Source: Patescibacteria group bacterium
GTDB taxonomy: Bacteria; Patescibacteriota; UBA1384; UBA12157; JAENIV01
Assembly: GCA_041666185.1 (NCBI GenBank)
Contig: JBAYHL010000001.1
Location: 69,073 to 133,072 of the forward strand
Direction: 5' to 3'
DNA: 64,000 nucleotides
Shown here one piece after another: positions 1,020 through 63,095 of the stretch. The translations under genes and the position numbers were made by a program. The notes under the pieces are model-generated. The model did no database searches and was not told the DNA's origin. It saw only the letters and a list, made by a program, of their open reading frames with translations. Every line of letters starts with the position of its first letter. Position 1 is the stretch's first letter.

Positions 1020-1808
1020 ATGAAAATATTATCACCACAATTGAATCTATCCAAACGACAAACCGACATTCTTATTCTTCTCTATCGCTTTCGCTTCCTA
1101 AATCGTCAACACATACAAAACTCACTCAACCACAAATACCGCAGCCGCATCTTATCCTGGCTTAACGAACTAACTAACCAAAACTACGTCAAACAATACT
1201 ACGACAAAACAATCGCATCGTCTCCGTCTGTCTATTCGCTTGATTCAAAGGGGAGAAAATATTTAAAGAATTTAAAGGAGGGAAATATTAAGCAGGTGCT
1301 ATTAGATCGGGTATGGCGCGAGGCAAAATACTCTTCAAAGTTCAGAGAACATTGTTTATCTTTAGCAGATATTTATATTTCCTTGCTTGGCATAACAGAT
1401 AAAAACAAATCCACCCTTCATTTTTATACCAAGACAGATTTGCATGGAACGGAACATTTCATTGCTCCGGCTCCTGACGCTCATTTCGCTATTGAGGAAG
1501 TGAATGGACAAGTCGTCCGTTACTTTCTGGATATCTTAGACGATATTCCGCCAGCAGCTCATCGCAGGCGGGTAGCGCAGTATTTTAAGTATTTTGCCTC
1601 CGGCGAATGGCAGGACAACACAGACAAGCCGTTTCCTGAAATTATTCTTATCTGCCCAAACACAAGGACAAAAGGTCATTTATTCTATTACATCCGTAAG
1701 AAACTCTCGGGAGAGCCTGATATTTGTTTTTATCTCACAGCCAAAGAACTCGTCGACAGGAAGGGTTTGAATGGAGAAACATTGCAGAAGGTTGCTGAGG
1801 AAGCGTAA
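1020..1808 (+). CDS. Replication-relaxation family protein (plasmid/ICE-associated)
   Basis: The N-terminal pattern SKRQTDILILLYRFRFLNRQHIQ matches the Replic_Relax family N-terminus. It lies next to the coupling-protein gene. Confidence 0.55.
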   Translation: MKILSPQLNLSKRQTDILILLYRFRFLNRQHIQNSLNHKYRSRILSWLNELTNQNYVKQYYDKTIASSPSVYSLDSKGRKYLKNLKEGNIKQVLLDRVWREAKYSSKFREHCLSLADIYISLLGITDKNKSTLHFYTKTDLHGTEHFIAPAPDAHFAIEEVNGQVVRYFLDILDDIPPAAHRRRVAQYFKYFASGEWQDNTDKPFPEIILICPNTRTKGHLFYYIRKKLSGEPDICFYLTAKELVDRKGLNGETLQKVAEEA

Positions 1809-1810
1809 TA

Positions 1811-2188
1811 TTATTTTTTTCTGGTGAGACTCTCAACGAGCATTAGGGGAATTGGAGTTAAAAAGAATACAACAAGCCCTTCTAAATATTCTTTATCAAC
1901 TATTATTAGTTCATACATAACTGGCAAAATAAATATCAAATATCCAAAGAAAGTTTTTTTGTAAATTACAAAGAAATGTTTTTTAAATAAGGAGTAGAAG
2001 GATAACGATAATAAAGCCAAAGAAAATAATACATATATAGAATAATAAATATCTCTTGAATACAAATCGCTTGGTTTCATTCCGTATGTAAATTCAATTG
2101 AAATGAGTACTAATGCAACAAGAAGATGAAGTGCGATCAAACACAAATATAGAGACCAAATTATTTTATCTTTAAGACTGAATTTCAT
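1811..2188 (-). CDS. Small integral membrane protein (hypothetical)
   Basis: 125-aa ORF with three or four hydrophobic helices. It is AT-rich. Confidence 0.3.
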   Translation of the reverse strand: MKFSLKDKIIWSLYLCLIALHLLVALVLISIEFTYGMKPSDLYSRDIYYSIYVLFSLALLSLSFYSLFKKHFFVIYKKTFFGYLIFILPVMYELIIVDKEYLEGLVVFFLTPIPLMLVESLTRKK

Positions 2189-2252
2189 GAGGTAATTATA
2201 TCACAATCCACAAAAAAGGCCTGAGAATCTCATGGACTCCCAGGCCTAATTC

Positions 2253-2582
2253 TCAATACTCATCCGCTAGCATCACCGTCATTATTCTTCTGCAACTTCC
2301 AGTTAGCGGATCTTCCCAAGCTTGCAATTCCTGATCGTAGTAGTCGATCTTCCAGAATACCTTGTCGCCGTGCCAATCAAGCCTGCCAAAGTCGTGCTCG
2401 CCCCAAGGATCATTGTTTTCATTGAAAACGTTGAACTCTTTGATTGCTTGAAGCAAACCGGGCAAGTCCTTAACACTCTGAACCCCGCATGTTAGAGTAA
2501 CTCCAAACCCGCTTCTTCTAAATTGATCGTTTAAGATAGCAACCTGCGAACGAGTATCTTCCATTTGTCTAGTAACCATACA
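2253..2582 (-). CDS. Hypothetical protein, conserved-looking (NDPWGEHDFG...DWHGDKVFWKIDYYD), in higher-GC cassette
   Basis: The start is set at the ATG preceded by GGAAGAGGAGG-ttgt (MVTRQMED...). The N-terminal extension in the ORF track lacks an RBS. GC is about 48%, versus about 33% in the flanks. Confidence 0.45.
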   Translation of the reverse strand, partial: CMVTRQMEDTRSQVAILNDQFRRSGFGVTLTCGVQSVKDLPGLLQAIKEFNVFNENNDPWGEHDFGRLDWHGDKVFWKIDYYDQELQAWEDPLTGSCRRIMTVMLADEY

Positions 2583-2718
2583 ACCTCCTCTTCCAATTAA
2601 ATTAAGGACGAGCAGGTCGACCTTCCCGCCCATCTGTAAAGAGGCAAAGAACAAATAGGCTGGCTGGGTCAAGGTGGAGCACCCAACGAGATGAACGACC
2701 TTGAGGCAGACAGTCTAT

Positions 2719-2752
2719 TTGTTCTACAAGATGGGAAGACTGGGCGGGAGGG
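2719..2752 (+). repeat. 33-bp direct repeat copy 1 (TTGTTCTACAAGATGGGAAGACTGGGCGGGAGG)
   Basis: It matches 4945-4977 with one mismatch (C/T). It is also part of an imperfect inverted repeat with 2628-2650. Confidence 0.6.
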
Positions 2753-2825
2753 AAGAAGTTTAGTATTGTTAAATGGTTCAATTTGTAATATAAAAAACTC
2801 AGGAACACAAAGGGGGTATAACAAG

Positions 2826-3209
2826 ATGGCAGAACAAGTTTGTTCTGATAAGTGCACATCAAAGGATAAAGTTCTGGAAATCGTAAGGCAGACAGTCAGC
2901 AAAGGCATTGGGCTAGTTAGGCTCCAGCTTTTAACCCTAGAGGTTTACGAGTTTACCATCGAGGAGGAGAGTAAAGACAAAGAGAATAGAAAGGGTGAAG
3001 CCGGCTACAATATCTTTCTGACTCTTGCCGAAAAAATAATTGATCGGGGCGGTTTTCATTCACCTCGAAGCGTCCAAGTTGTTTACGAATTGGTCATTTT
3101 CGTAAAACATGGTGATATCGAAGATAGCAAGGAACAACTCAAGAGTAGTTTGATCGCACAGCGGGAAATAGCCAAGTCGGATGCGATTACTTGGGGAGGG
3201 AGAGCCTAG
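2826..3209 (+). CDS. Hypothetical protein (128 aa) in higher-GC cassette
   Basis: The ATG at 2826 is preceded by AAAGGGGGTATAACAAG. The ORF-track start at 2691 would read through the direct repeat and has no RBS. Confidence 0.45.
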   Translation: MAEQVCSDKCTSKDKVLEIVRQTVSKGIGLVRLQLLTLEVYEFTIEEESKDKENRKGEAGYNIFLTLAEKIIDRGGFHSPRSVQVVYELVIFVKHGDIEDSKEQLKSSLIAQREIAKSDAITWGGRA

Positions 3210-3254
3210 AGCCTTTCCCTAAACTCATATTCAGATAAAAGGAGGCAGAATCAA

Positions 3255-3989
3255 TTGAAAAAAAGAGTTGCGGTAGTTACAGGGGCAGGACAAGGCATCG
3301 GAAAAGCGATTGCTTTTGCTCTTGCCAAGGAAGAAGGCATGATTGTCGTAGTCGTTGATTATAACGAGACGATTGCAAAAGAGGCTGCTCTGGAAATACG
3401 AGCATCTGGAGGCAACGCTACTGATCTGCGATGTGATGTCGGCAACCCTATCGAGGTGAGCTCTATTGCAGATATATGGCAGAACCAAGGGATTGATATT
3501 CTGGTTAACTGTGCCGGCATTACAAGAGACAAGCTGTCTGTGCGAATGACAGATAGCGAGTGGAGTGATGTCATTAGAACCAACCTCGATGGTACCTTCT
3601 ACTGTTCCAGGACGGTTGCCAATGTGATGCTTAAGTCCCGGAGGGGCGGGTGCATTGTAAATATTGCCAGTGTGATGGGTATCACGGGTAATGTAGGCCA
3701 GGCGAACTATGCCTCATCCAAAGGCGGAGTGATCGCTTTGACCAAGACAATGGCAAAGGAATATGCCTCACGTAATATTCGAGTCAATGCAGTTGCACCT
3801 GGCTTCATCGCAACAGCGATGACTGAGTCCTTGCCTGAGGTAAAGAGGATTGAAATCGAGAAGGCAATTCCAATGGGCCGGCACGGTAAACCGGAAGAAG
3901 TAGCTGAGGTGGTCAAGTTCCTCTGCTCCGATGCAGCCAGTTACATAACCGGCGAAGTAATCAAGATTGATGGCGGCCTGGCAATCTAG
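3255..3989 (+). CDS. fabG: Short-chain dehydrogenase/reductase, 3-oxoacyl-ACP reductase (FabG)-like
   Basis: It has the TGAGQGIGKA Rossmann motif, NCAG, and an S...YASSK catalytic triad context. It uses a TTG start after an AAAGGAGG RBS, and a rho-independent terminator follows. Confidence 0.85.
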   Translation: MKKRVAVVTGAGQGIGKAIAFALAKEEGMIVVVVDYNETIAKEAALEIRASGGNATDLRCDVGNPIEVSSIADIWQNQGIDILVNCAGITRDKLSVRMTDSEWSDVIRTNLDGTFYCSRTVANVMLKSRRGGCIVNIASVMGITGNVGQANYASSKGGVIALTKTMAKEYASRNIRVNAVAPGFIATAMTESLPEVKRIEIEKAIPMGRHGKPEEVAEVVKFLCSDAASYITGEVIKIDGGLAI

Positions 3990-4016
3990 CAGGCGCGATA
4001 ATAACAAAATCATCTT

Positions 4017-4052
4017 CCCCGCAGGCGCTATTGCTTGCGGGGCTATTTTTTG
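4017..4052 (+). terminator. Rho-independent terminator after fabG-like gene
   Basis: The stem CCCCGCAGGCGC...GCTTGCGGGG is followed by CTATTTTTTGTG. Confidence 0.6.
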
Positions 4053-4181
4053 TGTTCCCACACATTATATTCAATGGGATGACTGGCAGGGGAAGATTTA
4101 AAAACTCGTGGTTAATGCATGTTGACTAATTCAGTGCCTCTGTTAAAATAGCACTGGACAAAAAAAGGGGGTGAATGACTA

Positions 4182-4868
4182 ATGTCCAATATTTCCTATC
4201 ATGTGGGCCACATGGCAAGAAGTGTTCGATTGATGTTTGGCTGCAATCCTGTATTGCCGGAAGGTATGGAGATAGAAACAGGCAGTTTTCCTGAGCCTGC
4301 TGTCTACTTAGATCCATCGGGAGATGGCAGTTGTGTGCCAGGCATGAAGATTAAACTGAAGTGGTCAATCTCTCTGGGAGAATCTACCCAGGTGGATCTT
4401 CTTGACCTGAAAGATGAATGGCTAGTCGTACCGGTTGATAGCGTCAAGCTAACTGGTCACTGTGGTTTCACTGTAAAATCAAATGATCTGCCTAGAGGGG
4501 AAACAAGAAAGCTAACGGAAAAGAGGGGCTGGACGAATCGTGCAGATATCTTCCTGAGCGCTATCAGGGTTCTTTCTGAGCACCATACAGCGGTTCCCGG
4601 AGACAGAACGCCGATCACGGAAGATTCTGATCTGGGGAATGACCTCGGGATGGATCAAATTGACTTTATGGCCATAGTCGTTGAACTAGAAGATGTCTTC
4701 GAGATTGAAATTCCCGATGATGCTTTCCCTGTATCACAGGCAGAAGAACTTGTGAAGCTTGAGGAACGTGATGACGGATCGACAAAGCTCGTCGGTCCTG
4801 ATCTGATGGGTCCTGGATTAACAGTCGGACTGATTGTCGATTATATAGAACGGAAGTTGTTCTTGTAA
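4182..4868 (+). CDS. Two-domain protein with a C-terminal acyl-carrier-protein-like domain in which the conserved Ser is replaced by Gln (DLGMDQIDF...)
   Basis: The C-terminal sequence DLGMDQIDFMAIVVELEDVFEIEIPDD aligns to the ACP consensus [27 protein letters not shown], with Gln at the Ser position. An AAGGGGGTGA RBS is present. A terminator lies at 4906-4938. Confidence 0.55.
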   Translation: MSNISYHVGHMARSVRLMFGCNPVLPEGMEIETGSFPEPAVYLDPSGDGSCVPGMKIKLKWSISLGESTQVDLLDLKDEWLVVPVDSVKLTGHCGFTVKSNDLPRGETRKLTEKRGWTNRADIFLSAIRVLSEHHTAVPGDRTPITEDSDLGNDLGMDQIDFMAIVVELEDVFEIEIPDDAFPVSQAEELVKLEERDDGSTKLVGPDLMGPGLTVGLIVDYIERKLFL

Positions 4869-4905
4869 TCGCCGCACACCATCGTTGCAGTTTCCTATAT
4901 TCTCG

Positions 4906-4938
4906 GCCCGTGGGCATTCGCTCGCGGGTTTTCTTTTT
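4906..4938 (+). terminator. Rho-independent terminator (G-U-containing stem plus U-tract)
   Basis: The stem GCCCGTGGGCATTCGCTCGCGGGT is followed by TTTCTTTTTG. Confidence 0.5.
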
Positions 4939-4944
4939 GCAATT

Positions 4945-5041: not shown

Positions 5042-7216
5042 ATGAATGAATTCGGGCAATCAATTTTTATCGAGCCAAAGCCACAAGATAGCATGGGATC
5101 TGCAGAAAGCTATCAAGCTTTGGATGCGGAAAATGGCCAGGAGGGAGAACGAGCTTTCACCGCAGAGGAATTAAGAGAAATTGATTCTAAGAGAAAAATT
5201 TTAACTTCACTGGCATATTTTATTGGTAAAGATTTCCAAATGCCGGTGGAACTTAATAAGCCAGGAGGTGGATGGCACTGGGACTTTAAGGAAAATGTTG
5301 TCAGAGTTGATCCAAAAGATCTATTAGATAAGCCTATGGATTATCTCCGTTTTGTTATTTCTCACGAAGGCGGTCATCGCAGAATTTCTCGTACAGAATT
5401 CATACCTTTAGAGACATGGCGACAGCCTGGATTTTCTTTTATGATGAATGCAATCGAGGATCCAAGAGACAATAATTTTGTAGCAGAAAATTACCCCAAA
5501 TTTAGAGAGCAAATGAATTTGGCTTATGAAATGGATCTAGATTGGGAAAATAAGTCGAAAGAAAAAGCCGAGTCTAAACTTGGCTACCAGCCAAGATTTA
5601 TGCAAGCCGGGTTTGAATATATTAAACAATGGTTTCACGAACAAAAAGGCACTGAGGCAGTAATTGATGAATCCTTACCAGATGAAGTTAAAGATGTCGT
5701 CGCTAAAACTTTAGAATCGGCTCGTGCTTCATGGTGGACATATCCGTCTCGTCAGGAAGCCGATGAAGATGAAGAACTTATAAAAAGATATGCAGAATCT
5801 TCCTACAAAATTAGCTTAGAAAATATATGGCCGGAATTCCAAAAATTAATTGAAAAAGACATTGAAGACCAAAAAACTCAGGAATTATTAGATGACATGC
5901 AAAAAGAAAAAGGTGAGGATGGAAGTACTGATTTGCCACAAGAATTGAAAGAACAACTTTCTCCCGAAGAACAACAAGAGCTAAAGGATGCAATAGATAA
6001 GGCAATTGAAGAAACAAAGCAACAAGGAAAGGGAGAAGCCCAAGAGGGAAAACCAAGTGAAGGAGAAGGAGAACCAGGAGAAGAGCCGAGCCAAGGAGGT
6101 AAACCAATCGATCTAGGCTCTTTGTCTCCCGAACTAAAACAAAAAATAAAAGATTTTATTGACTCTCTTCCCAAAGACAAGAAACAGGAATTAAAAGAAA
6201 GAGCTCAAAAATCTATAGCTGAATTCGAAAAAGACCTCGATAAAGAAATCGAAGGAAAAATGTCAGATAACCCCGACAATAGAGAAGAAGGGAAAACAGC
6301 AAAAGCAGAGCCGTCCAAGCCTACGGAGCAGCCACAAGAACCAGAAACTCCAACACAAACGACTTCTCCAGAATTGGAAAAATATCGTGAGATGATTGCC
6401 GAGACTCTTAAAAAAGATGAGAATACTTACGAGGAAAATAGACGAGAGGTACTGTCTATTATCGATAGTCTTGAAAGCGATCTCCGAGAAATATTTGTCA
6501 CTCGACGTATGCATGCTTGGAAGGGCGGATATAAATCTGGAAAACGGATCGATATTAAAAGGAGAATTCAAGAAAAAGCCAAAGAGGTTTCAGCGATGGA
6601 AAGCCGAGCTTGGGAAAAGCGCGAGATGCCAAGCGAAAAGGATTATGCTATTAGTCTCTTGATTGATTTGTCGGGTTCGATGCGTGGAGAAAAGATAAAA
6701 GAGACTTTTAAAGCCACGATTGTTCTTGCAGAAGTCTTAAATAGGCTTTCAATTCAAACGGAAATCTTAGGATTTAATGACCGAGTTTATGAGTACCAAA
6801 AATTTGGAGAGAATATTTCTCGAGAAATTAGAGAGAATATGGGAGGAATGCTCCAGGAGGTTTATGATACTAGCGGTACCGGGAAAGCTCAGTGGAATGA
6901 TGACGGTTGGGCTCTAACACAAGCTTCAGAAAGATTGGCTAAACAAAAAGCTGTTGAGAAGTTCTTGATCGTTATGTCGGATGGAGCACCGGAAGAATCA
7001 TCTATGCATCCTCGATCTGAATACGATTTAAGCAAAGTGACAGAGAAGGTATTGAAAGAAACAGACCAAAAACTTATAGGTTTAGGAATTGGTTATGGTA
7101 CAAAGCATGTTGAACATTATTATCCGAACAGTTTGGCTGATGTTAGCTTAGAAGAAATGGCTGGTAAACTGGCCGATCTGATCCGTGAGGCTATTGCTAA
7201 CTACGATAAATTCTAA
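5042..7216 (+). CDS. vWA-domain protein with N-terminal HExxH metallopeptidase-like domain and a central acidic/Lys-rich low-complexity linker; MoxR-associated
   Basis: An HEGGH (HExxH) motif sits near residue 110. A MIDAS motif DLSGSM and a downstream SDG motif lie in the C-terminal vWA fold. A long E/K/Q-rich linker separates them. A MoxR ATPase gene is two genes downstream. Confidence 0.7.
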   Translation: MNEFGQSIFIEPKPQDSMGSAESYQALDAENGQEGERAFTAEELREIDSKRKILTSLAYFIGKDFQMPVELNKPGGGWHWDFKENVVRVDPKDLLDKPMDYLRFVISHEGGHRRISRTEFIPLETWRQPGFSFMMNAIEDPRDNNFVAENYPKFREQMNLAYEMDLDWENKSKEKAESKLGYQPRFMQAGFEYIKQWFHEQKGTEAVIDESLPDEVKDVVAKTLESARASWWTYPSRQEADEDEELIKRYAESSYKISLENIWPEFQKLIEKDIEDQKTQELLDDMQKEKGEDGSTDLPQELKEQLSPEEQQELKDAIDKAIEETKQQGKGEAQEGKPSEGEGEPGEEPSQGGKPIDLGSLSPELKQKIKDFIDSLPKDKKQELKERAQKSIAEFEKDLDKEIEGKMSDNPDNREEGKTAKAEPSKPTEQPQEPETPTQTTSPELEKYREMIAETLKKDENTYEENRREVLSIIDSLESDLREIFVTRRMHAWKGGYKSGKRIDIKRRIQEKAKEVSAMESRAWEKREMPSEKDYAISLLIDLSGSMRGEKIKETFKATIVLAEVLNRLSIQTEILGFNDRVYEYQKFGENISREIRENMGGMLQEVYDTSGTGKAQWNDDGWALTQASERLAKQKAVEKFLIVMSDGAPEESSMHPRSEYDLSKVTEKVLKETDQKLIGLGIGYGTKHVEHYYPNSLADVSLEEMAGKLADLIREAIANYDKF

Positions 7217-7230
7217 TACAATTTAAACAT

Positions 7231-7641
7231 ATGGAAAGCAAAAAATTTCATCAATTTATCAAAGATTCTCAAGGCCAAAAGGAGCTTTCTTTAGCGTTGG
7301 CAAAATCAGACGAAGAGTTTATTAAGTTTCATGCTTTTCTAACAGAAGGTGGATATATCGGATCGGATGATATTTACACTGTCTTATCGCACCTTGAAAG
7401 ACATAAAAAAGTCTATTTAGTTATCAATAATACAAGCGCAAAGGTCCTTTACGATTTTGCCACGCAATACCCCACCGGACAAGTAAATCTTTTAAATCCC
7501 AAAACCATGGAAAACAAAAGTTTCACTCCTGACTATAAAAATCATTCGCTAATTTTACTTACAACATCAGAATACTTAAAACACATTGTCAAGCATGATT
7601 TAGATTTTATAAATATAGTTGGAATGGTATATAAAAGTTAA
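7231..7641 (+). CDS. Hypothetical protein (136 aa) between vWA and MoxR genes
   Basis: ORF on the same strand with tight spacing, consistent with operon membership. Confidence 0.45.
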   Translation: MESKKFHQFIKDSQGQKELSLALAKSDEEFIKFHAFLTEGGYIGSDDIYTVLSHLERHKKVYLVINNTSAKVLYDFATQYPTGQVNLLNPKTMENKSFTPDYKNHSLILLTTSEYLKHIVKHDLDFINIVGMVYKS

Positions 7642-7650
7642 AGGTAATTT

Positions 7651-9783
7651 ATGCCTAATTCACCAGAATTTAGTTTTGCCAATATAGCTGAAGGAGGATC
7701 GGGAGGAAAAGAGCCGGTTCAACTCCAAGAAGACCCAAAAACAGAGCTGCCCAAAGCTCCGATTTTGGAAGACGAAGATTCTATATCGTATCTTGGAGTT
7801 AAGCTAGAGAAATCCCATGTCTCCAGTGCTTTCGTGCCGGAAAGAGAAAAATACACCGACTATATCAATGATAAATTTTCACTTGAATTGCAACAAAAAA
7901 TTGCGGTCTCGATGCTTCAGGGTGATCCGATACTTATTGAGGGCGGAACAAGTATTGGAAAAACTACCACTGTTAGAAAGATGTGCGCCGAGTTGGGATA
8001 TGAAGTGCATTACGCAAACCTAAACGGCGCGACTGATGTTGAAGATTTGATGGGCAGATATATCCCCAATCCTCACAAGACCAATCCCGAGGATCCTGAA
8101 TATGTTTTTGCTGACGGCAAGGTTACTTCGGGGCTTCGCAAAGAAGAAGGGAAAAAGAAAATCATCATTTTAGATGAGTTCAATGCTTCAGCTCCAAATA
8201 TCTTGATTCGTCTTCATGAAGTAATAGATGCACTAGAGCGGGGCGGCGAAGTTGTTTTATCCGAGGATGCTTCAGAAGTTGTGCATGTTAGTCATGAAGA
8301 TACAAAGATAATTGCTCTTACAAATCCTCCAGGAAAGGGTTATTTTGGCAGAGAACCTCTTGATCCTGCGCAGTTACGAAGATGGGTTTACCAAAAGGAA
8401 GTTACTGAACTACCGGATAGCACATTTGCTTTTTCAACAGAGGCTTTGTTTGGCATTGGCAGTAGAACTGAAGAAATTCCTGATAGTCTTTATTTAGATT
8501 CACCCGATCAAGCTATTTCACGCGAACAACTAGCAGAAATCTCTGGAATGAAAGAGATACTAGACAAGTATCAGGAATTTCACAAAGCAGCAAAGGAACT
8601 CATTAAACAGAGAATGGTTGCTGCAGACCAGCCCCAGCCGTTTACTTTTGACGACAGAATGGAACCACACAGAATTAGTCGGTTTGTTGCACGTTTTTAT
8701 AATGGCGATATCAACGAAACTTTTCAAAGAGGCCTACGATATTATTATGTTAATAAGCTAGAAAATTCAGAGGACAGACAAAAACTTGAGGAATTGATTA
8801 GTCATGTCTCGTGTACCCCTGCCGTAGACTCTAGAAGACGGGCTATCGGCGAACCTGAAACAAAGACTCCGGAAAGCGCACTAAAAACAAGAGCTGAAAA
8901 AGAGATCGAAGATATAATGTCCAGTTCTGAAATACCAGATTCAGTTAAGGCGGCACTTGCCGGAAAAGAGACGCCACTATCCAGCGAGATATTAGAACAA
9001 ATGAAGGAAGCTAAAGAGATTTTTGGGAATGATTTTCTTGGTCCAGAGGAAGTCAAAGCCGCTTTCTTGGATCAAGTGGAGATCTCTGAAGTTCCATCGA
9101 TTCCATTCTCGAAAGAAGAGCTTGAAAAAGCTCGCGAGCTGGAGCAAATGCTTATCTTACGAGTTGATAAAGCCAAGGATGGTTCAGACCTCACTATGGA
9201 AAAAATTCATGGCCTTCTTAATGGCAAAATCAAAGATGAGGCAAAAGTTTTATACAGCGTCGATTGGTATAAAGATGAAGAATTCTATAAAAAAGATAAG
9301 CCGGAAGTTACTTGGGCGCTTGTCTCCAAAGAAGCTGTGCCGGATTCCTCTGATAAAAATTATCTTGAACAAACTGAAACATTAGCCAACTATTTAAGAA
9401 ACGAAGTGTTTAAAACATTGATAATGCCAGCCAAATACGGTGAAGCCCTCAGGGAATTCGAAAAGGAAAAAGCTTCAATTGCCAGGATTGTTGAAAGCGA
9501 CAAAGAATCAGAATGGAAAGAGGCAGCTCGCAAGCTTGAGGCATTGAAGCTTAATCAACTTACTCGGCAATCCCCAACCGAAGCGCTATATGATTTAATA
9601 GTTCGCTATCAGCAGACAGGCGAGAGATTGATGGAAAATATGTATACTTGGACTAAGCGCCGTGATTCCGGTGGCGGCCTGGTCTGTGTTGGCCGCTTCG
9701 AGTCCGTTGGTGTCCGCGTCGGCGGGGGCAGGCCTGGCGATTGGAGTGGCATTCTTGGCGTTTCTTTCTCCCGCAGTCTATGA
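7651..9783 (+). CDS. MoxR/AAA_5-type AAA+ ATPase fused to a C-terminal DGR variable C-type-lectin/FGE-like domain (DGR target 1)
   Basis: It has Walker A GGTSIGKT, Walker B IIILDEFNASAP and a MoxR-like sensor region. The last about 40 codons form VR1 and differ from the template repeat at adenines. Confidence 0.75.
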   Translation: MPNSPEFSFANIAEGGSGGKEPVQLQEDPKTELPKAPILEDEDSISYLGVKLEKSHVSSAFVPEREKYTDYINDKFSLELQQKIAVSMLQGDPILIEGGTSIGKTTTVRKMCAELGYEVHYANLNGATDVEDLMGRYIPNPHKTNPEDPEYVFADGKVTSGLRKEEGKKKIIILDEFNASAPNILIRLHEVIDALERGGEVVLSEDASEVVHVSHEDTKIIALTNPPGKGYFGREPLDPAQLRRWVYQKEVTELPDSTFAFSTEALFGIGSRTEEIPDSLYLDSPDQAISREQLAEISGMKEILDKYQEFHKAAKELIKQRMVAADQPQPFTFDDRMEPHRISRFVARFYNGDINETFQRGLRYYYVNKLENSEDRQKLEELISHVSCTPAVDSRRRAIGEPETKTPESALKTRAEKEIEDIMSSSEIPDSVKAALAGKETPLSSEILEQMKEAKEIFGNDFLGPEEVKAAFLDQVEISEVPSIPFSKEELEKARELEQMLILRVDKAKDGSDLTMEKIHGLLNGKIKDEAKVLYSVDWYKDEEFYKKDKPEVTWALVSKEAVPDSSDKNYLEQTETLANYLRNEVFKTLIMPAKYGEALREFEKEKASIARIVESDKESEWKEAARKLEALKLNQLTRQSPTEALYDLIVRYQQTGERLMENMYTWTKRRDSGGGLVCVGRFESVGVRVGGGRPGDWSGILGVSFSRSL
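9655..9780 (+). repeat. DGR variable repeat VR1
   Basis: About 125 nt align to the template repeat (11428-11552). Roughly 22 substitutions all fall at template adenines, plus a single non-A difference. The 3' end CTTGGCGTTTCTTTCTCCCGCAGTC is IMH-like. Confidence 0.8.
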
Positions 9784-9811
9784 GCCTTTGAACTTTGGTA
9801 TTTGAGACTTT

Positions 9812-9834
9812 GATTCCGCCGAAGGCGGTCGACA
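9812..9834 (+). other. GC hairpin (CCGCCGAAGGCGG) downstream of VR1, typical DGR target-site hairpin / terminator
   Basis: The same hairpin recurs after VR2. Confidence 0.6.
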
Positions 9835-9866
9835 TAAAAAATTTTATACAATTAAAGGCAAAAAAT

Positions 9867-10856
9867 ATGAGTGAATTTGGTCCATCACCACAATCAGAAG
9901 AAGAAAAAGAAGAACAAGGTGTTTCTCTAGCAAAGGAAATAGCTGATCTTAGAAGTGGTGCCCAAACAGATGAAGATTATGAAAATATTTTGCGTAAAAC
10001 CAAAGTGCTAAAAGAACTGTTTGGGATTTCTTCATGGGATACTGCTTCAGATGAAACTAAATTATCAGGCGAAATAGCTGAACAAATTGAAAGAGCTAAA
10101 GAAATATTAGGAAGTGATGTTTTTGGGCCAGATGCAGTAAAAGAAGCCTTTGGCACTGCAATTGAATTAGGCAGTATTCCCTCGATTCCATTTTCAGTAA
10201 ATGAACTTGAAAGAGCAAAAGAACTCGGCCAGATGCTCATTTTGAGAGCCGGCAAATTGTCTGATGGAAGCAAACTAAATATGAAAAAGATCGGTGAAAT
10301 TTTGGGTGGTAAAGTTAAAGATGAGGGTAAGGTTTTTTATAATCCCGATTGGTACAAAGATGAAAAATTTTTTACAGACGATGCTGTTGAAACCGGTTGG
10401 GCATTGGTCTCTAAAGGGTTAGTATCTGATTCTGTCAATAAAAACTATTTTGAACAAACCGGACTCTTAATCGATCAACTTAATCAGTCTTTTAATGGTG
10501 CTGAAAACTTACCAGAAGAGTATGTTGAGGCAGTGAAAGAATATGCTTTTGCTATGGACGAGATCGCGGAATTAATTGATACTGATTGGCAAAAAGCGGC
10601 TGAGAAATTAGAAGGCCTGGAGATTAATCAATTATTACGTCAATCTCCATCCGAAGCGCTATATGACTTAATTCTCTATTTTCAAAACACAGGGAAAAGA
10701 TTGCTTGGCGATAAATATACTTGGACTAAGCGCCGTAATTCCGATGGCCGCCTGGTCTATGTTGGCTACTTCGAGTCCGCTGGTGTCAGCGTCGGCAGGT
10801 ACAGGCCTGGCTATTCGCGTGGCGATCTTGGCGTTTCTTTCTCCCGCAGTCGTTGA
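9867..10856 (+). CDS. DGR target protein 2, C-type-lectin/FGE-like variable protein (paralog of the C-terminal half of the MoxR fusion)
   Basis: It is about 55% identical at the protein level to residues 430-710 of the upstream gene. The C-terminus is VR2. The alternative start at 9795 lies inside the VR1 hairpin, so I rejected it. Confidence 0.7.
   Translation: MSEFGPSPQSEEEKEEQGVSLAKEIADLRSGAQTDEDYENILRKTKVLKELFGISSWDTASDETKLSGEIAEQIERAKEILGSDVFGPDAVKEAFGTAIELGSIPSIPFSVNELERAKELGQMLILRAGKLSDGSKLNMKKIGEILGGKVKDEGKVFYNPDWYKDEKFFTDDAVETGWALVSKGLVSDSVNKNYFEQTGLLIDQLNQSFNGAENLPEEYVEAVKEYAFAMDEIAELIDTDWQKAAEKLEGLEINQLLRQSPSEALYDLILYFQNTGKRLLGDKYTWTKRRNSDGRLVYVGYFESAGVSVGRYRPGYSRGDLGVSFSRSR
10728..10851 (+). 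repeat. DGR variable repeat VR2
   Basis: It aligns to the template repeat and every internal difference falls at a template adenine (about 16 sites). Confidence 0.8.
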
Positions 10857-11050: not shown

Positions 11051-11335
11051 ATGTATTATGTTTATGTTTTAAAAAGCCAGAAAGACAAGCGCCTTCACAT
11101 CGGTTACACAAATGACTTACGCCGTTGTATGGAAGCGCATCGTGATGGCAAAATTGCTGCTACAAAAGATAGAATGCCGCTTGAGCTAGTTTATTACGAA
11201 GCGTACAAGTCGGTCACTGACGCGAGAAAAAGAGAGAAGGATTTGAAATTATTCGGCAGTTCTTATTCTCGTCTCAAAAGAAAAATTAATAATAGCATCA
11301 AAGACAAGATTAAAACTAGTGAAGATACTAAATAA
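11051..11335 (+). CDS. GIY-YIG nuclease-domain small protein
   Basis: YVYVLKS...GYTNDLRRCMEAHR matches the GIY-YIG signature. Confidence 0.65.
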   Translation: MYYVYVLKSQKDKRLHIGYTNDLRRCMEAHRDGKIAATKDRMPLELVYYEAYKSVTDARKREKDLKLFGSSYSRLKRKINNSIKDKIKTSEDTK

Positions 11336-11427: not shown

Positions 11428-11552
11428 AAACGCCGTAATTCCGATGGCAACCTGGTCTATGTTGGCAACTTCAAGTCCGATGGTGTCAACGTCAACAGGA
11501 ACAGGCCTGACAATTCGAATGACAATCTTGGCGTTTCTTTCTCCCGAAGTCT
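11428..11552 (+). repeat. DGR template repeat (TR)
   Basis: It is rich in AAC/AAT codons at positions that vary in VR1 and VR2. It is non-coding as placed and carries a 3' IMH-like segment. Confidence 0.8.
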
Positions 11553-11912
11553 AAAAACAAAAAGGGCTGTCTTGCTAAGAGGACGACCCTTTTTGCTCTA
11601 TATGTTCTAATTTTTTGTAGTTTTTATCCAGCCACCAAGCATTTTACCGATCTCAATTAAAGGCTCGGAAAGTCGTAAAAATTTTTTGTTATCAATTGCC
11701 TTGATATCAAGCAATGCCTTAATTAAAGTTTGCAATATTTTAAGTTTTGTATCGACGGATTGTAAAACGGCGAGACGATTTTGCCCGTATTTTGCGTTTG
11801 CTTCATACAGCATTTCTAAAATATTTAAAGCTGTATTTTCGCATTTGGCCCCAATTGTATACCTATCCTTCTTAGGAATAGTCTCAATAGTGCTGTATAA
11901 ACACAAGTAAAA

Positions 11913-12599
<687 letters not shown>

Positions 12600-12612
12600 T
12601 TTAACAAGTCAG

Positions 12613-13053
12613 TTGTTCTCAAATATATATCTCAATCCGCTCGATCAGTTTATTAAAAGAGACCTTAAAGAAAAATATTACATTCGCTATGCTGATGATT
12701 TTGTGATTTTGAGTTGTGATCGGGATCATTTAGAGAATCTTATCCCAATATTAAGGTCATTTCTTACTGATGATCTTAAGCTAGAATTGCACCCAGATAA
12801 GATTATCTTGCAAAAATGGAGCCAAGGAATCGACTTTCTAGGATATGTAATTTTTCCATACCATACTGTGCTACGAACAAAAACGAAACAAAGAATGATG
12901 AGAAAAATAAGGAATAATTGCTATCTTTTGAAAGAAGGCCGTATGTCTAGAGAGGCTTTTAATCAAGCTCTGCAATCATATATAGGAATTTTGAAACATT
13001 GCCGCTCTCACGTGTTACGCGATAAGATTGAAACCATCGTTAAAGAAGTCTGA
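12613..13053 (+). CDS. DGR reverse transcriptase, C-terminal part (PLGNLTSQ DGR signature, YADD catalytic motif, thumb); frame +1 relative to N-terminal part
   Basis: The frame is open from 12565 (AFGRGTPLGNLTSQLFSNIYL...) and includes YADDF. Confidence 0.7.
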   Translation: MFSNIYLNPLDQFIKRDLKEKYYIRYADDFVILSCDRDHLENLIPILRSFLTDDLKLELHPDKIILQKWSQGIDFLGYVIFPYHTVLRTKTKQRMMRKIRNNCYLLKEGRMSREAFNQALQSYIGILKHCRSHVLRDKIETIVKEV

Positions 13054-13587: not shown

Positions 13588-14733
13588 TTGTTGAATAAAT
13601 TCTACAATAATGTTAAAAAATTAACAAAGGATATAATGCGGAAAGATTCTGTTAATAACCTGAAAAATAAAAGAGAGCATATAAGCAAACGACTCCGTTT
13701 TAAAATTTTTGAACGAGATCAATTTAAGTGTGTTTATTGTGGTAGTGGCATCGAAATGGGTTTAACTCTTCACATTGACCATATAATTCCTGTTTCTAAA
13801 GGCGGAACTAATGAGGAAGCCAATTTAGTCACAGCCTGCGACCAATGTAATCTTGGTAAAGGAGCAAAAATAATTGGAGCGGATAAAATTCCTAACATTA
13901 AAGAAGTAAATGAAGCGCTAACAAAAGAAATTAAACTGAATACAGAGCGAAGGGAACAACTTAAACAATATTATCATTATAAAGAAAAACTCCAGAATAT
14001 AAAGAATCCAGAACAAGATGCGTTCAATGATATTTTAAAGAGAAGGCTTGGCTACTCCTTAACTTCTGTCGAGTTTAAACAATTTAAAAGGCTGCATGAT
14101 AAATGTGGCTTGGATCTTGTCATTGAAGGAATTGGAATTGTTGCCGAGAAAGACAGAGACTGGGCATCTTCCGAGCAGAAGCACAGATACCTCTGTGGAG
14201 TTTTATATAATTTATTTCGCGAGAAAACTGATCCGCTCTACAATCCTGAAAGAGAGGTTAAATATTATTATCTTAATCACAAAAATAACAGCGGCAGCGT
14301 ATATTATGTGGATTGGAAAATTAAGCCATATATCCAGAAACTAGAGCTTCCTAAGATAAAAGAGTTAATAGACGACACATTTTCAGAAGGGAGAGATGGC
14401 TATTTTAGGTACTTTATTGAACAGTGTAAGGATGCTCTCTTGTTAATTGAAGAAGAGAAGAAAGCTAAGGAATTTTATCTAACTCATCCAAATAAAATCC
14501 AGGATGATATTTATAACAGTGATAAAATTAGGTATTTTATTGAGATTTTAGGATTAGATCGTGTGTTGGAATTAATGGGACAGGCCCTAAAGGATTATGA
14601 AACCCCGGAAGTCAGAAATCATATTCAAGTCAACCATGATGGCAAGCCCTTTAATTACTTAATGGAAACGTGCGAGATATTTGAATGGGATGAGATAGAA
14701 AAGAAAAATGGCAGAGTCGGAATCCCATTCTAA
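13588..14733 (+). CDS. HNH endonuclease-domain protein with large C-terminal extension
   Basis: CVYCG...HIDHIIPVSKGG...ACDQCN matches the HNH motif. Confidence 0.6.
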   Translation: MLNKFYNNVKKLTKDIMRKDSVNNLKNKREHISKRLRFKIFERDQFKCVYCGSGIEMGLTLHIDHIIPVSKGGTNEEANLVTACDQCNLGKGAKIIGADKIPNIKEVNEALTKEIKLNTERREQLKQYYHYKEKLQNIKNPEQDAFNDILKRRLGYSLTSVEFKQFKRLHDKCGLDLVIEGIGIVAEKDRDWASSEQKHRYLCGVLYNLFREKTDPLYNPEREVKYYYLNHKNNSGSVYYVDWKIKPYIQKLELPKIKELIDDTFSEGRDGYFRYFIEQCKDALLLIEEEKKAKEFYLTHPNKIQDDIYNSDKIRYFIEILGLDRVLELMGQALKDYETPEVRNHIQVNHDGKPFNYLMETCEIFEWDEIEKKNGRVGIPF

Positions 14734-15461
14734 ATAAATTGCTTTATTATATTCATTATTATTCTAATGCCCTTCAACCCTAATATCATAATCCTGAAGT
14801 TTAAAATAAACCACCATCCTAGCACAGGCAAAACAAAACCAGTGAAAAATGCCCGTACTTTCAGCTTACTGCATTGCTTAGAGTTGACAACAAGGCTTCG
14901 ATGCATTCGCTCGTATTTGTCTTTATAACCTTCAGCGAGCTTTTTGTTTGCGCCAAGGTAAGCCATTACTTCCTTAGCTGCTTTCTCGTCGAAAGTCCTT
15001 CTCATCATTTCCCGACTGTTTCTCTGCGAAAGGATATTTAAGCTCCCTTCCCAAAGTATTTTTCGATCAATGATCGCCACCTTTTCATGAATCGACCCTT
15101 GGAGATAGAAAATGCAGGCTCCCATCTCCTCATAATCTTTTAAAGCGCATTGGATTTCTGCTCTCATAAAATACTCGTGCTCTTCGATCGGTCTGGTGAA
15201 TATAAAGACTGCGATATTTCTTCGTCTAAGCTTATTGAGCGTATCGCTGAAAAAATCTGAACGAAATTTTGAGATGAAAGGGCTGTAAATAATGAGTTCT
15301 TTTTCGGCATTCAGCATATCTTTGATGAATGATCGGTAAAATGTCTTTTCATTATATAAAGAGATGGCGGTTTTTGATTTTTCTTTTCCTCTTTGCTGTT
15401 CGGCCTGGATCATAGCGTCTCTATGCTTTAAGTAATCTTTGAACGATGGGTTTTTGTACAT
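14730..15461 (-). CDS. Phospholipase D-like (HxK(x)4D) nuclease-family protein with C-terminal hydrophobic segment
   Basis: HEKVAIID matches HxKxxxxD. Confidence 0.55.
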   Translation of the reverse strand: MYKNPSFKDYLKHRDAMIQAEQQRGKEKSKTAISLYNEKTFYRSFIKDMLNAEKELIIYSPFISKFRSDFFSDTLNKLRRRNIAVFIFTRPIEEHEYFMRAEIQCALKDYEEMGACIFYLQGSIHEKVAIIDRKILWEGSLNILSQRNSREMMRRTFDEKAAKEVMAYLGANKKLAEGYKDKYERMHRSLVVNSKQCSKLKVRAFFTGFVLPVLGWWFILNFRIMILGLKGIRIIMNIIKQFI

Positions 15462-62949: not shown

Positions 62950-63095
62950 AAACCGCCTAAACCCGTAAGGGCATGGCAACCAAAAATCCTACAGTGATAT
63001 AAACGGTCTTTCGACCGCACTTATTCACTGTAGGTTCATACCCGAAAGGGTGTGGGACAGTTCCGAAAGGAATTGTCGTGGTTCGAAAGACCATT
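62950..63095 (+). ncRNA. Candidate structured cis-regulatory RNA (multiple GNRA-capped hairpins, alternative terminator/antiterminator pairing, U-tract)
   Basis: Hairpins: CCCGTAAGGG; the pair CCTACAGTGA...TCACTGTAGG enclosing GGTCTTTCGACC; ACCCGAAAGGGT; TTCCGAAAGGAA; TGGTTCGAAAGACCA followed by TTTTTG. The segment at 62996-63007 can alternatively pair with 63071-63083. Confidence 0.4.

Follow-up and report, generated by a model that had tools for sequence, protein, structure and literature searches.

Bacteria that belong to the candidate phyla radiation (CPR; Patescibacteria) have tiny genomes and few recognised defence systems. They are enriched in diversity-generating retroelements (DGRs), and the DGR targets of CPR bacteria mostly lack recognisable domains (PMC8144416). 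The commonest CPR target type is a fusion of an AAA ATPase with a lectin domain, as Doré et al. 2024 (PMC10907252) report from Paul et al. 2017; CPR targets with Midasin and P-loop matches ('UVR4/Midasin', category g1 P-loop NTPase) were recorded by Wu et al. 2018 (PMC5758913). No function has so far been assigned to this target type. Here we describe one such ATPase-lectin fusion, the DGR that diversifies it and the two genes that accompany it, in a stretch of 64,000 nucleotides of contig JBAYHL010000001.1 from a Patescibacteria group bacterium; this whole stretch is referred to as the window, and all coordinates are those of the window unless another contig is named.

A second group of described systems bears on the locus. 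Kaur et al. 2020 (PMC7159879) reported ternary systems of a von Willebrand factor A (vWA) protein, a MoxR ATPase and a third protein, in which a DGR-diversified formylglycine-generating enzyme (FGE) domain is carried on the vWA component, and these were extended by Doré et al. 2024. That such systems are linked to DGRs had been stated correctly in an earlier note on the window. The ternary systems, which contain a VMAP protein, occur in multicellular cyanobacteria, actinobacteria and proteobacteria; CPR were excluded from the multicellularity statistics of that paper, and a text search of it returned no other mention of CPR (PMC7159879).

One template repeat and two variable repeats

The genes between 5042 and 13053 are arranged in the order vWA gene, small gene, fusion gene, second target, GIY-YIG gene, template repeat (TR), avd and reverse transcriptase (RT) gene, so that three co-directional genes (5042-7216, 7231-7641 and 7651-9783) precede the DGR, as the earlier note had it. 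The TR is 124 nt long (11428-11551, forward strand) and its further copies form the 3' ends of both target genes: variable repeat 1 (VR1; 9655-9778, forward strand) codes for the last ~41 residues of the ATPase-lectin fusion, and VR2 (10728-10851, forward strand) belongs to the stand-alone second target. TR and VR1 differ at 24 positions, 23 of them at TR adenines, and TR and VR2 at 17 positions, all of them at TR adenines (17/17); with both VRs pooled, 40/41 mismatches fall on template adenines, which make up 32 of the 124 TR bases and stand at codon position 1 or 2 in 30 of 32 cases. A 20-nt invariant 3' anchor was found in exactly three copies in the 64-kb window, against 0.01 expected. Each VR lies at the C-terminus of a target with a C-type-lectin (CLec) fold and is followed by the invariant anchor, which resembles an initiation of mutagenic homing (IMH) element. 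The locus is a DGR with one TR and two VRs, far beyond chance.

The accessory protein Avd is encoded at 11607-11984 on the reverse strand, opposite to the RT (Pfam bAvd, E = 5.9e-18), which is also the arrangement in most related loci. A cruciform downstream of the VRs, in the style of the Bordetella phage, was looked for and not found. An inverted repeat with 14-nt arms (11558-11595, no strand) lies directly 3' of the TR, before the end of avd, and could be a (bidirectional) terminator or an RNA element of the DGR. Between the targets and the TR there is a gene for a GIY-YIG nuclease-domain protein (11051-11335, forward strand; Pfam GIY-YIG, E = 4.3e-11); its position is unchanged in a contig that comes from another, independent sample and has ~90% nucleotide identity to the window (L073 in the following), and GIY-YIG-like matches were also obtained in loci L008 and L063.

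The ATPase-lectin fusion and its stand-alone paralogue

The fusion gene (7651-9783, forward strand) codes for 710 aa, in which an AAA_5 ATPase is joined to a CLec-fold domain. Pfam AAA_5 was matched over residues 94-244 (E = 1.1e-12), and the ATPase contains a Walker A motif (GGTSIGKT, residues 98-105, nt 7942-7965), a Walker B motif (IILDEFN, residues 172-178, nt 8164-8184), a sensor-1 region (nt 8314-8334) and the sequence DPAQLRRW (nt 8362-8385); K104/T105 of Walker A, D175/E176 of Walker B, N225 of sensor-1 and R243/R244 of the RRW are invariant in the family. AAA_5 was matched by 26/26 family members and AAA_3, the profile of MoxR proper, weakly by 4/26 (best E 0.0047); NCBIfam returned no match for the ATPase. 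In comparisons with PDB sequences the AAA modules of midasin came first (E = 9.4e-32 or 1e-29), followed by CobS and NorQ at ~0.01 (CobS 0.014; NorQ 2e-4 with a profile) and then CbbQ. PDB chain 2r44 ('Uncharacterized protein'), which we take to be a MoxR-type ATPase, matched at E = 0.74. Judged by these matches, the ATPase is placed in the AAA_5 branch of the MoxR-like ATPases with vWA partners, closest to midasin, NorQ and CobS, and outside MoxR proper. Of the label 'MoxR/AAA_5-type' that had been given to it the second half therefore holds for the whole family and the first, if taken as MoxR proper, does not; nor is the ATPase from an unrelated AAA+ clade, as the AAA_5 group with NorQ, CbbQ, CobS and midasin consists of MoxR relatives.

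Besides the ATPase, the fusion protein carries a helical extension of ~200 residues and a variable lectin domain of 280 residues. The C-terminal fragment that was modelled (residues 431-710, nt 8941-9780; 113 homologues) gave a predicted local distance difference test (pLDDT) score of 94.9 and a predicted template-modelling (pTM) score of 0.92, and in the model the VR is made up of the last four beta-strands. A CLec/FGE fold was confirmed by structure comparison, which, together with the position of VR1 at the C-terminus, agrees with the earlier description of the C-terminal 280 aa as a diversified lectin-like domain. The FGE-sulfatase profile (PF03781) that had been proposed as a check gave no match for the fusion at E<=1 and was not among the 25 most-matched families of the 26 members. 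The variable domain is thus a C-type-lectin/FGE-fold domain of divergent sequence, which supplies the fold of the variable region that Wu et al. 2018 had left open.

The second target, on the forward strand, is a lectin paralogue with 54% identity to residues 431-710 of the fusion, and with 17/17 VR2 mismatches at adenines it is the stand-alone second target that the earlier note had seen in it. Its start is more likely the ATG at 9867 (9867-10856, 329 aa) than the TTG at 9795 from which the mechanically called open reading frame (ORF) begins (353 aa); the L073 orthologue was called as 329 aa. Searches of Pfam, NCBIfam, PHROGs and PADLOC with the second target gave no informative match. The maximum 19-residue Kyte-Doolittle mean over the vWA protein, the small protein, the fusion and the second target was 1.12, with no segment resembling a membrane span or signal peptide, on which grounds all four proteins, and with them the variable domains, are predicted to be cytoplasmic.

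The vWA protein and the small protein

The vWA protein (5042-7216, forward strand; 724 aa) consists of an N-terminal zincin-like domain (residues ~40-290), an acidic helical linker (residues 271-480, 29% D/E) and a C-terminal vWA domain of CobT/NorD type (residues ~525-724). The last ~200 residues matched Pfam CobT_C (E = 4.4e-18) and VWA (E = 4.7e-07), and comparison with PDB sequences returned CobT (9.6e-14), the domain of midasin with the metal ion-dependent adhesion site (MIDAS; 2.9e-05, and 4.8e-08 with a profile) and NorD (8e-04 with the family profile). The MIDAS motif DLSGSM, already pointed out in the earlier note, occupies residues 542-547 (nt 6665-6682); D542, S544 and S546 are invariant in 55 homologues. 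The succession of a domain, an acidic linker and a C-terminal MIDAS is the layout of CobT, NorD and the tail of midasin. Annotation of such proteins as 'CobT' suggests a cobaltochelatase; this reading was ruled out by the TIGR01651 CobT equivalog, whose score of 41.3 bits falls far below the cutoff of 759. The neighbourhoods that were examined contained no CobN (no search of the whole genome was made).

In the N-terminal domain the sequence HEGGH (residues 108-112, nt 5363-5377) is followed by E139/D140 (nt 5450-5476), and H108, E109, G110, G111, H112, E139 and D140 are invariant in 55 sequences. The domain hence has an HExxH motif and, downstream of it, an acidic third ligand, the identity of which we infer. 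Evidence for the zincin fold as such is weak. Pfam DUF2201_N (PF13203) gave no match for the window protein at E<=10, and no peptidase family was among the 25 most-matched Pfam families of the 55 homologues at E<=10. A zincin-like metallopeptidase core is likely in this domain. The earlier claim of an N-terminal HExxH metallopeptidase-like domain was accordingly sustained for the motif and less so for the fold, and its comparison with DUF2201_N was not supported.

The small gene (7231-7641, forward strand) lies directly upstream of the ATPase gene and codes for 136 aa, the fold of which was left unassigned by profile and PDB searches. Pfam, NCBIfam, PHROGs, PADLOC and PDB returned no match for it, and Pfam was also blank for 50 family members, in line with the 'small unknown gene' of the earlier note. 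The sole PDB profile match, a designed Rossmann-like protein (E 0.067), was rejected as a relative. The family comprises 176 representative clusters at E<=0.001; among the 150 clusters listed, lengths were 68-157 aa (most ~130-145 aa) and the alignments covered most of the query. It is fast-evolving, with 22-55% identity to the query compared with 59-92% for the vWA protein. In two loci, L023 (7051-12172) and L062 (6833-11997), one vWA gene is followed by two tandem copies of a unit made up of the small gene and the ATPase-lectin gene. A 4-8 nt overlap of the small gene with the start of the ATPase gene was seen in L075 and the P0051 contig. Joint duplication and overlap suggest that the small protein is a cognate partner specific to its copy of the ATPase; the two genes are probably translationally coupled.

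Conservation across CPR lineages

For the fusion protein at least 430 homologues were found, of which the 120 listed cover 92-100% of the query; the named sources are mostly Patescibacteria. Related loci were scanned with one genome per species (72 loci) and gene content was scored by tblastn. The 72 loci span Saccharibacteria, Paceibacteria, Berkelbacteria, Doudnabacteria, Zambryskibacteria, Dojkabacteria, Peregrinibacteria and others. Where at least 3 kb of upstream sequence was available, the vWA gene with both its N- and C-terminal domains was present on the same strand in 61/62 loci and the small gene directly upstream of the ATPase in 58/62, so that the vWA/HExxH gene, for which the earlier note had asked for a co-occurrence analysis, is conserved together with the targets. 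Where at least 5 kb downstream was available, a DGR RT was nearby in 28/42 loci and Avd in 26/42. No description of the near-universal vWA/HEGGH and small-protein partners was found in the searchable literature, in which Paul et al. 2017 was not included.

Lectin paralogues that stand alone occur repeatedly, placed downstream of the fusion gene, as in the window, or between the vWA and small genes. In other loci the conserved ATPase module of ~400 residues is joined to differing C-terminal domains, several of them with Avd and RT nearby. The fusion ends in '...VGFRVAVVLGT' in L034-L036, L039, L042, L044 and L071, in '...GCRLSRCF' in L037, L047 and L053, and in '...LGVVSVR' in L014, L019 and L022-L026. 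Such endings seem to represent distinct variable-region classes, and the ATPase seems to serve as a platform for interchangeable variable domains. Contigs with the three genes were also found under the labels Gammaproteobacteria, Pseudomonadales, Bdellovibrionales, Geobacteraceae, Anaerolineaceae or Micrarchaeota metagenome-assembled genomes (L021, L030, L039, L040, L042, L051, L058-L060, L065, L071, L072, L003 and L041); these labels are probably binning or labelling errors and do not point to genuine finds beyond the CPR.

Recent diversification and the interrupted RT gene

The window TR and the L073 TR are 100% identical over 123 nt, whereas the flanking DNA is ~90% identical. Between the two contigs VR1 differs at 22 positions, 21 of them TR-adenine sites, and VR2 at 16 positions, all of them TR-adenine sites (16/16); ~19 codons per lectin tip have been rewritten by adenine-specific mutagenesis. 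An unchanged TR next to VRs that changed at adenine sites shows that mutagenic homing, with RT, Avd and TR, has operated since the split from this 90%-identical relative. Across 113 family members the mean entropy of adenine-templated VR codons was 2.81 bits and that of all remaining VR codons 0.89 bits (p = 1.2e-7), which means that the same scaffold positions are diversified across the whole family. By these comparisons the diversification was recently active; current activity of the DGR does not form part of the claim. The 'active diversification' of the earlier note is upheld to that extent, as recent, but the note had overlooked that the RT ORF is broken in the assembly.

The RT frame (11913-13053) is broken between 'IIDSY' and 'SAFGRGTPLGNLTSQ' by ~67 nt (12498-12564, forward strand), which consist of a hairpin with an 11-bp stem, a 38-nt GA run (19 units, 12521-12558) and then CCTAA. 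The N-terminal part (11913-12599, forward strand, frame 0) ends with a stop at 12597-12599 and matched Pfam RVT_1 (E = 4.5e-10) and the NCBIfam group II RT (2.5e-24); the C-terminal part (12565-13053, forward strand, frame 1) begins with GSAFGRGTPLGNLTSQ, a DGR-type motif, has its first start codon, TTG, at 12613 and likewise matched RVT_1 (5.5e-11). The DGR RT motif [I/L]GxxxSQ is present as PLGNLTSQ. The insertion, which is specific to this lineage, causes a +1 frame shift and places a TAA in the sole productive frame. Related RTs were in frame and had no insertion in 12/12 cases examined, and a GA run of >=7 units was found in 0/72 loci. That the RT might undergo phase variation through the number of GA units was considered and rejected: all three frames meet a stop at any repeat length, and a change of copy number cannot restore the frame because the TAA follows the tract in the productive frame. 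An assembly artefact as the sole cause was weakened as an explanation by L073, an independent sample, in which the same hairpin and GA tract occur at the same RT site (14850-14906), the contig ending inside the tract. The exact sequence of the tract is uncertain, as it is hard to assemble and L073 ends in it. The RT frame would be regained, giving '...LRL-GRGTPLGN...', by a +1 slip at CTT-CGG-C (12573-12579); of the Arg codons in the window CGG is the least used (2.1 per 1000). The possible accounts of the break are thus an assembly error, an RT acting in trans, or recoding by the +1 slip.

The interruption allows the DGR to be read as a decaying relic, with the RT a pseudogene and the VRs frozen, in which case the ATPase module may work with fixed specificities. 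The split of the RT by the insertion, the lack of any GA copy number that yields a continuous frame and the intact RTs of the relatives fit this, as does the one non-adenine difference between TR and VR1 (C at 11516 in the TR, G at 9743 in VR1), which is not found in the VR1 of L073 and is probably an ordinary point mutation that became fixed after the most recent homing. Against it, L073, ~10% diverged, shares the hairpin and GA tract and yet has an identical TR and VR differences at adenine sites. The insertion therefore appears to be older than the split of window and L073, which is difficult to reconcile with a dead RT, and diversification would have gone on after it arose, unless it was acquired twice or the RT acts in trans. 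TR and Avd are intact (Avd is also intact in L073, 94% identical), the uncertain tract sequence may be wrong, and the slip site with its rare codon offers a way back into frame. We regard a relic as a possibility of some weight that the evidence does not favour; this was judged as a question separate from the readings of function considered below (conflict sensor, chaperone or element cargo). With the RT interrupted in the assembly, the variant repertoire may currently be frozen.

Genomic context

G+C content is 39-44% over the first ~12 kb and 33-37% over the rest of the window, a step that is consistent with a horizontally acquired island. Upstream of the vWA gene lie a fragment of a TraG-D_C coupling protein (85-906), a Replic_Relax gene (1020-1808) and a DUF3768 gene (2253-2672, reverse strand), and upstream of the module in L073 (1-7153) a full type IV secretion system (T4SS) gene set was found, including TraG, TraC-like, PrgI, T4SS-pilin and TrbC. 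The region 1804-4943 of the window (~3.1 kb) corresponds to ~0.5 kb in L073 and resembles an insertion that separates the vWA gene from the relaxase region; its ORFs code for a 172-aa protein of no assigned identity (2691-3209), an SDR/FabG-like reductase (3255-3989) and a 228-aa protein with a C-terminal acyl-carrier-protein domain (4182-4868). Other copies of the module adjoin serine recombinases, ParB-methyltransferase, type I restriction-modification, trypsin, RelA/SpoT, Fic and AbiEi/AbiEii genes.

The conjugation genes raise the question of whether the module is cargo of a conjugative or integrative element and serves that element, in entry exclusion, anti-defence or addiction, the lectin tracking variable proteins of the host cell or of competitor elements. 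The genes immediately upstream in the window, the T4SS set of the 90% relative and the elevated G+C content would agree with this, and so would the Replic_Relax and resolvase genes that adjoin the P0003 copy and the serine recombinases that flank the L074 and L075 copies. However, homologues of the T4SS and relaxase genes of the window were found within 10 kb in only 2/72 loci, and the link to conjugation is therefore lineage-specific; moreover, only three relatives were found in 2.9 million viral contigs. We consider service to an element quite improbable. The same viral count led to the rejection of a phage origin. Judged by its neighbourhoods, the module behaves as cargo of variable, horizontally exchanged islands that are rich in conflict genes, and frequent transfer may explain its high sequence conservation across CPR classes.

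Downstream of the RT (13588-15461) there are a gene for a 381-aa HNH-endonuclease protein, with weak likeness to PtuB in PADLOC, and a convergent gene for a PLD-family protein (PLDc_2; weak likeness to MkoC/DrmC); in the P0003 contig, too, the DGR is followed by a PLDc_2 gene. The two may be a separate defence gene pair. An Rfam match to LOOT RNA at 62954-63077 (forward strand; 60.6 bits, gathering score 46.4) is unrelated to the module.

Possible function

Taken together, the parts of the locus can be read as an intracellular recognition machine for biological conflict that is tuned by the DGR and consists of an AAA ring and a vWA/zincin-like partner. On balance this is the reading to which we incline. 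The ATPase would form a ring, by analogy with NorQ-NorD, CbbQ-CbbO, CobS-CobT and midasin, and so display several copies of the variable lectin tip, while the vWA protein would dock on the ring through its MIDAS domain or its acidic linker. An intracellular ligand, most plausibly a protein of a phage or mobile element, would bind the lectin tip; ATP hydrolysis would turn binding into remodelling, and remodelling would deliver the ligand to the zincin-like HEGGH domain for cleavage or else activate that domain. The stand-alone paralogue could provide a second specificity, as a co-sensor or a decoy. For DGR targets linked to MoxR and STAND proteins, a sensor-transducer logic of this kind was put forward by Doré et al. 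2024 (PMC10907252), and the vWA-MoxR sensor idea has a precedent in the work of Kaur et al. 2020 (PMC7159879). Should the locus indeed encode a conflict sensor, DGR-tuned intracellular immunity would extend from multicellular bacteria to obligate episymbionts.

Several points weigh against a conflict sensor. PADLOC gave nothing meaningful for the four proteins, and no model of a known defence system supports a role in conflict; about one third of the well-covered loci have no RT within 10 kb; and the RT of the present locus is interrupted. The vWA protein and the ATPase are 55-75% identical across many CPR lineages, which exceeds the conservation usual for immune genes and agrees with frequent horizontal transfer as well as with a housekeeping role. 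Finally, complex formation, the stoichiometry of the ring and the ligand are all matters that we infer.

Some of the same points would suit a remodelling chaperone with no part in conflict, in which the variable lectin adapts the choice of substrate to changing partners, such as proteins that the episymbiont takes up from its host. All of the nearest relatives with solved structures are assembly or activase chaperones, the vWA protein and ATPase are very highly conserved across CPR lineages, PADLOC finds no match, and a role in host interaction has been proposed for CPR DGRs (PMC10907252). A hypervariable binding site in the cytoplasm, however, fits poorly with a fixed cellular client, and the module is found in islands with recombinases, restriction-modification, AbiE and Fic genes and raised G+C content. 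The CobT equivalog score (41 against the cutoff of 759) also speaks against a chaperone of this kind, and no client gene (CobN, NorB or Rubisco) is co-conserved in the examined loci. A chaperone is in our view unlikely.

A further-reaching version of the conflict-sensor reading would treat the three genes as a distinct, CPR-wide system and a fourth NTPase-vWA conflict architecture, in which the motor bears the hypervariable antigen-binding domain, the MIDAS adaptor bears the protease, and hypermutation is gated at the RT by an insertion that has to be overcome by the +1 frameshift at CTT-CGG-C or by repeat-dependent recoding. This we put forward as speculation, with considerable doubt.

Comparison with known systems

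DGR variable proteins of solved structure, TvpA, Mtd and TaqVP, have 7-12% sequence identity to the variable domain; TvpA and Mtd are surface or virion proteins, whereas the variable domain described here is predicted to be cytoplasmic and is fused to an ATPase. Among bacterial proteins, NorQ-NorD, CbbQ-CbbO and CobS-CobT are the closest sequence relatives for which both structures have been solved, and they share with the window locus the adjacent genes and the intact MIDAS; they differ from it in that here the ATPase carries a lectin domain and a helical extension of ~200 residues, the vWA protein carries HEGGH, and no client is co-conserved. Midasin (Rea1/Mdn1) is the best sequence match of the AAA module, and the layout of its tail is shared by the vWA partner. 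It is, however, one giant eukaryotic polypeptide with six AAA modules, whereas the window protein has just one AAA module and presumably oligomerises, with the MIDAS carried by another protein.

The STAND NTPase-CLec targets (nSTAND1/NACHT-FGE; Doré et al. 2024) are likewise NTPases fused to a C-terminal diversified CLec domain, and a logic of sensor plus switch has been suggested for them. They act as an oligomerisation switch, in contrast to the H2-insert/AAA_5 type of AAA+ protein found here, with its putative ring and vWA adaptor.

The VMAP systems (Kaur et al. 2020; DGR 4, 5 and 7 of Thiohalocapsa, Doré et al. 2024) share with the window a neighbourhood that encodes a MoxR-like AAA+ protein and a vWA protein together with a third protein and a diversified FGE/CLec domain, and their products, too, are predicted to be cytoplasmic. 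Their CLec domain is joined to the vWA component, leaving the ATPase unfused, whereas here it is joined to the ATPase; their vWA domain is N-terminal and followed by effector domains, whereas here it is C-terminal, after the acidic linker. The VMAP protein is large, with an N-terminal peptidase, cyclase or EAD and C-terminal VMAP domains, whereas the third gene here codes for 136 aa with no Pfam match, and no VMAP family was matched by the neighbouring products that were scanned. Lacking a VMAP protein, and with its lectin domain carried elsewhere than on the vWA component, the module is not a ternary system of the VMAP type, and the locus cannot be counted, as the earlier note had done, among the examples of the surveyed vWA-MoxR systems.

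The nearest counterparts are the AAA-fusion DGR targets of CPR bacteria. These come from the same phylum and have the same N-terminal AAA ATPase and C-terminal variable-repeat domain, the same cassette layout with avd opposite to the RT, and the same best ATPase match, midasin. No essential difference was found, and the locus is an instance of this class; the architecture of the ATPase-lectin fusion is already known, and its novelty had been overstated, the Midasin and P-loop matches having been reported in Wu et al. 2018 (PMC5758913). What the present analysis adds to the class are the MIDAS/HEGGH and small-protein partners of the ATPase, the CLec/FGE fold of the variable domain and the predicted cytoplasmic location of all components, by which an anonymous variable protein is resolved into separable and testable parts, namely a candidate sensor in the lectin tip, a motor in the presumed AAA ring, a MIDAS adaptor and a possible zincin-like effector.

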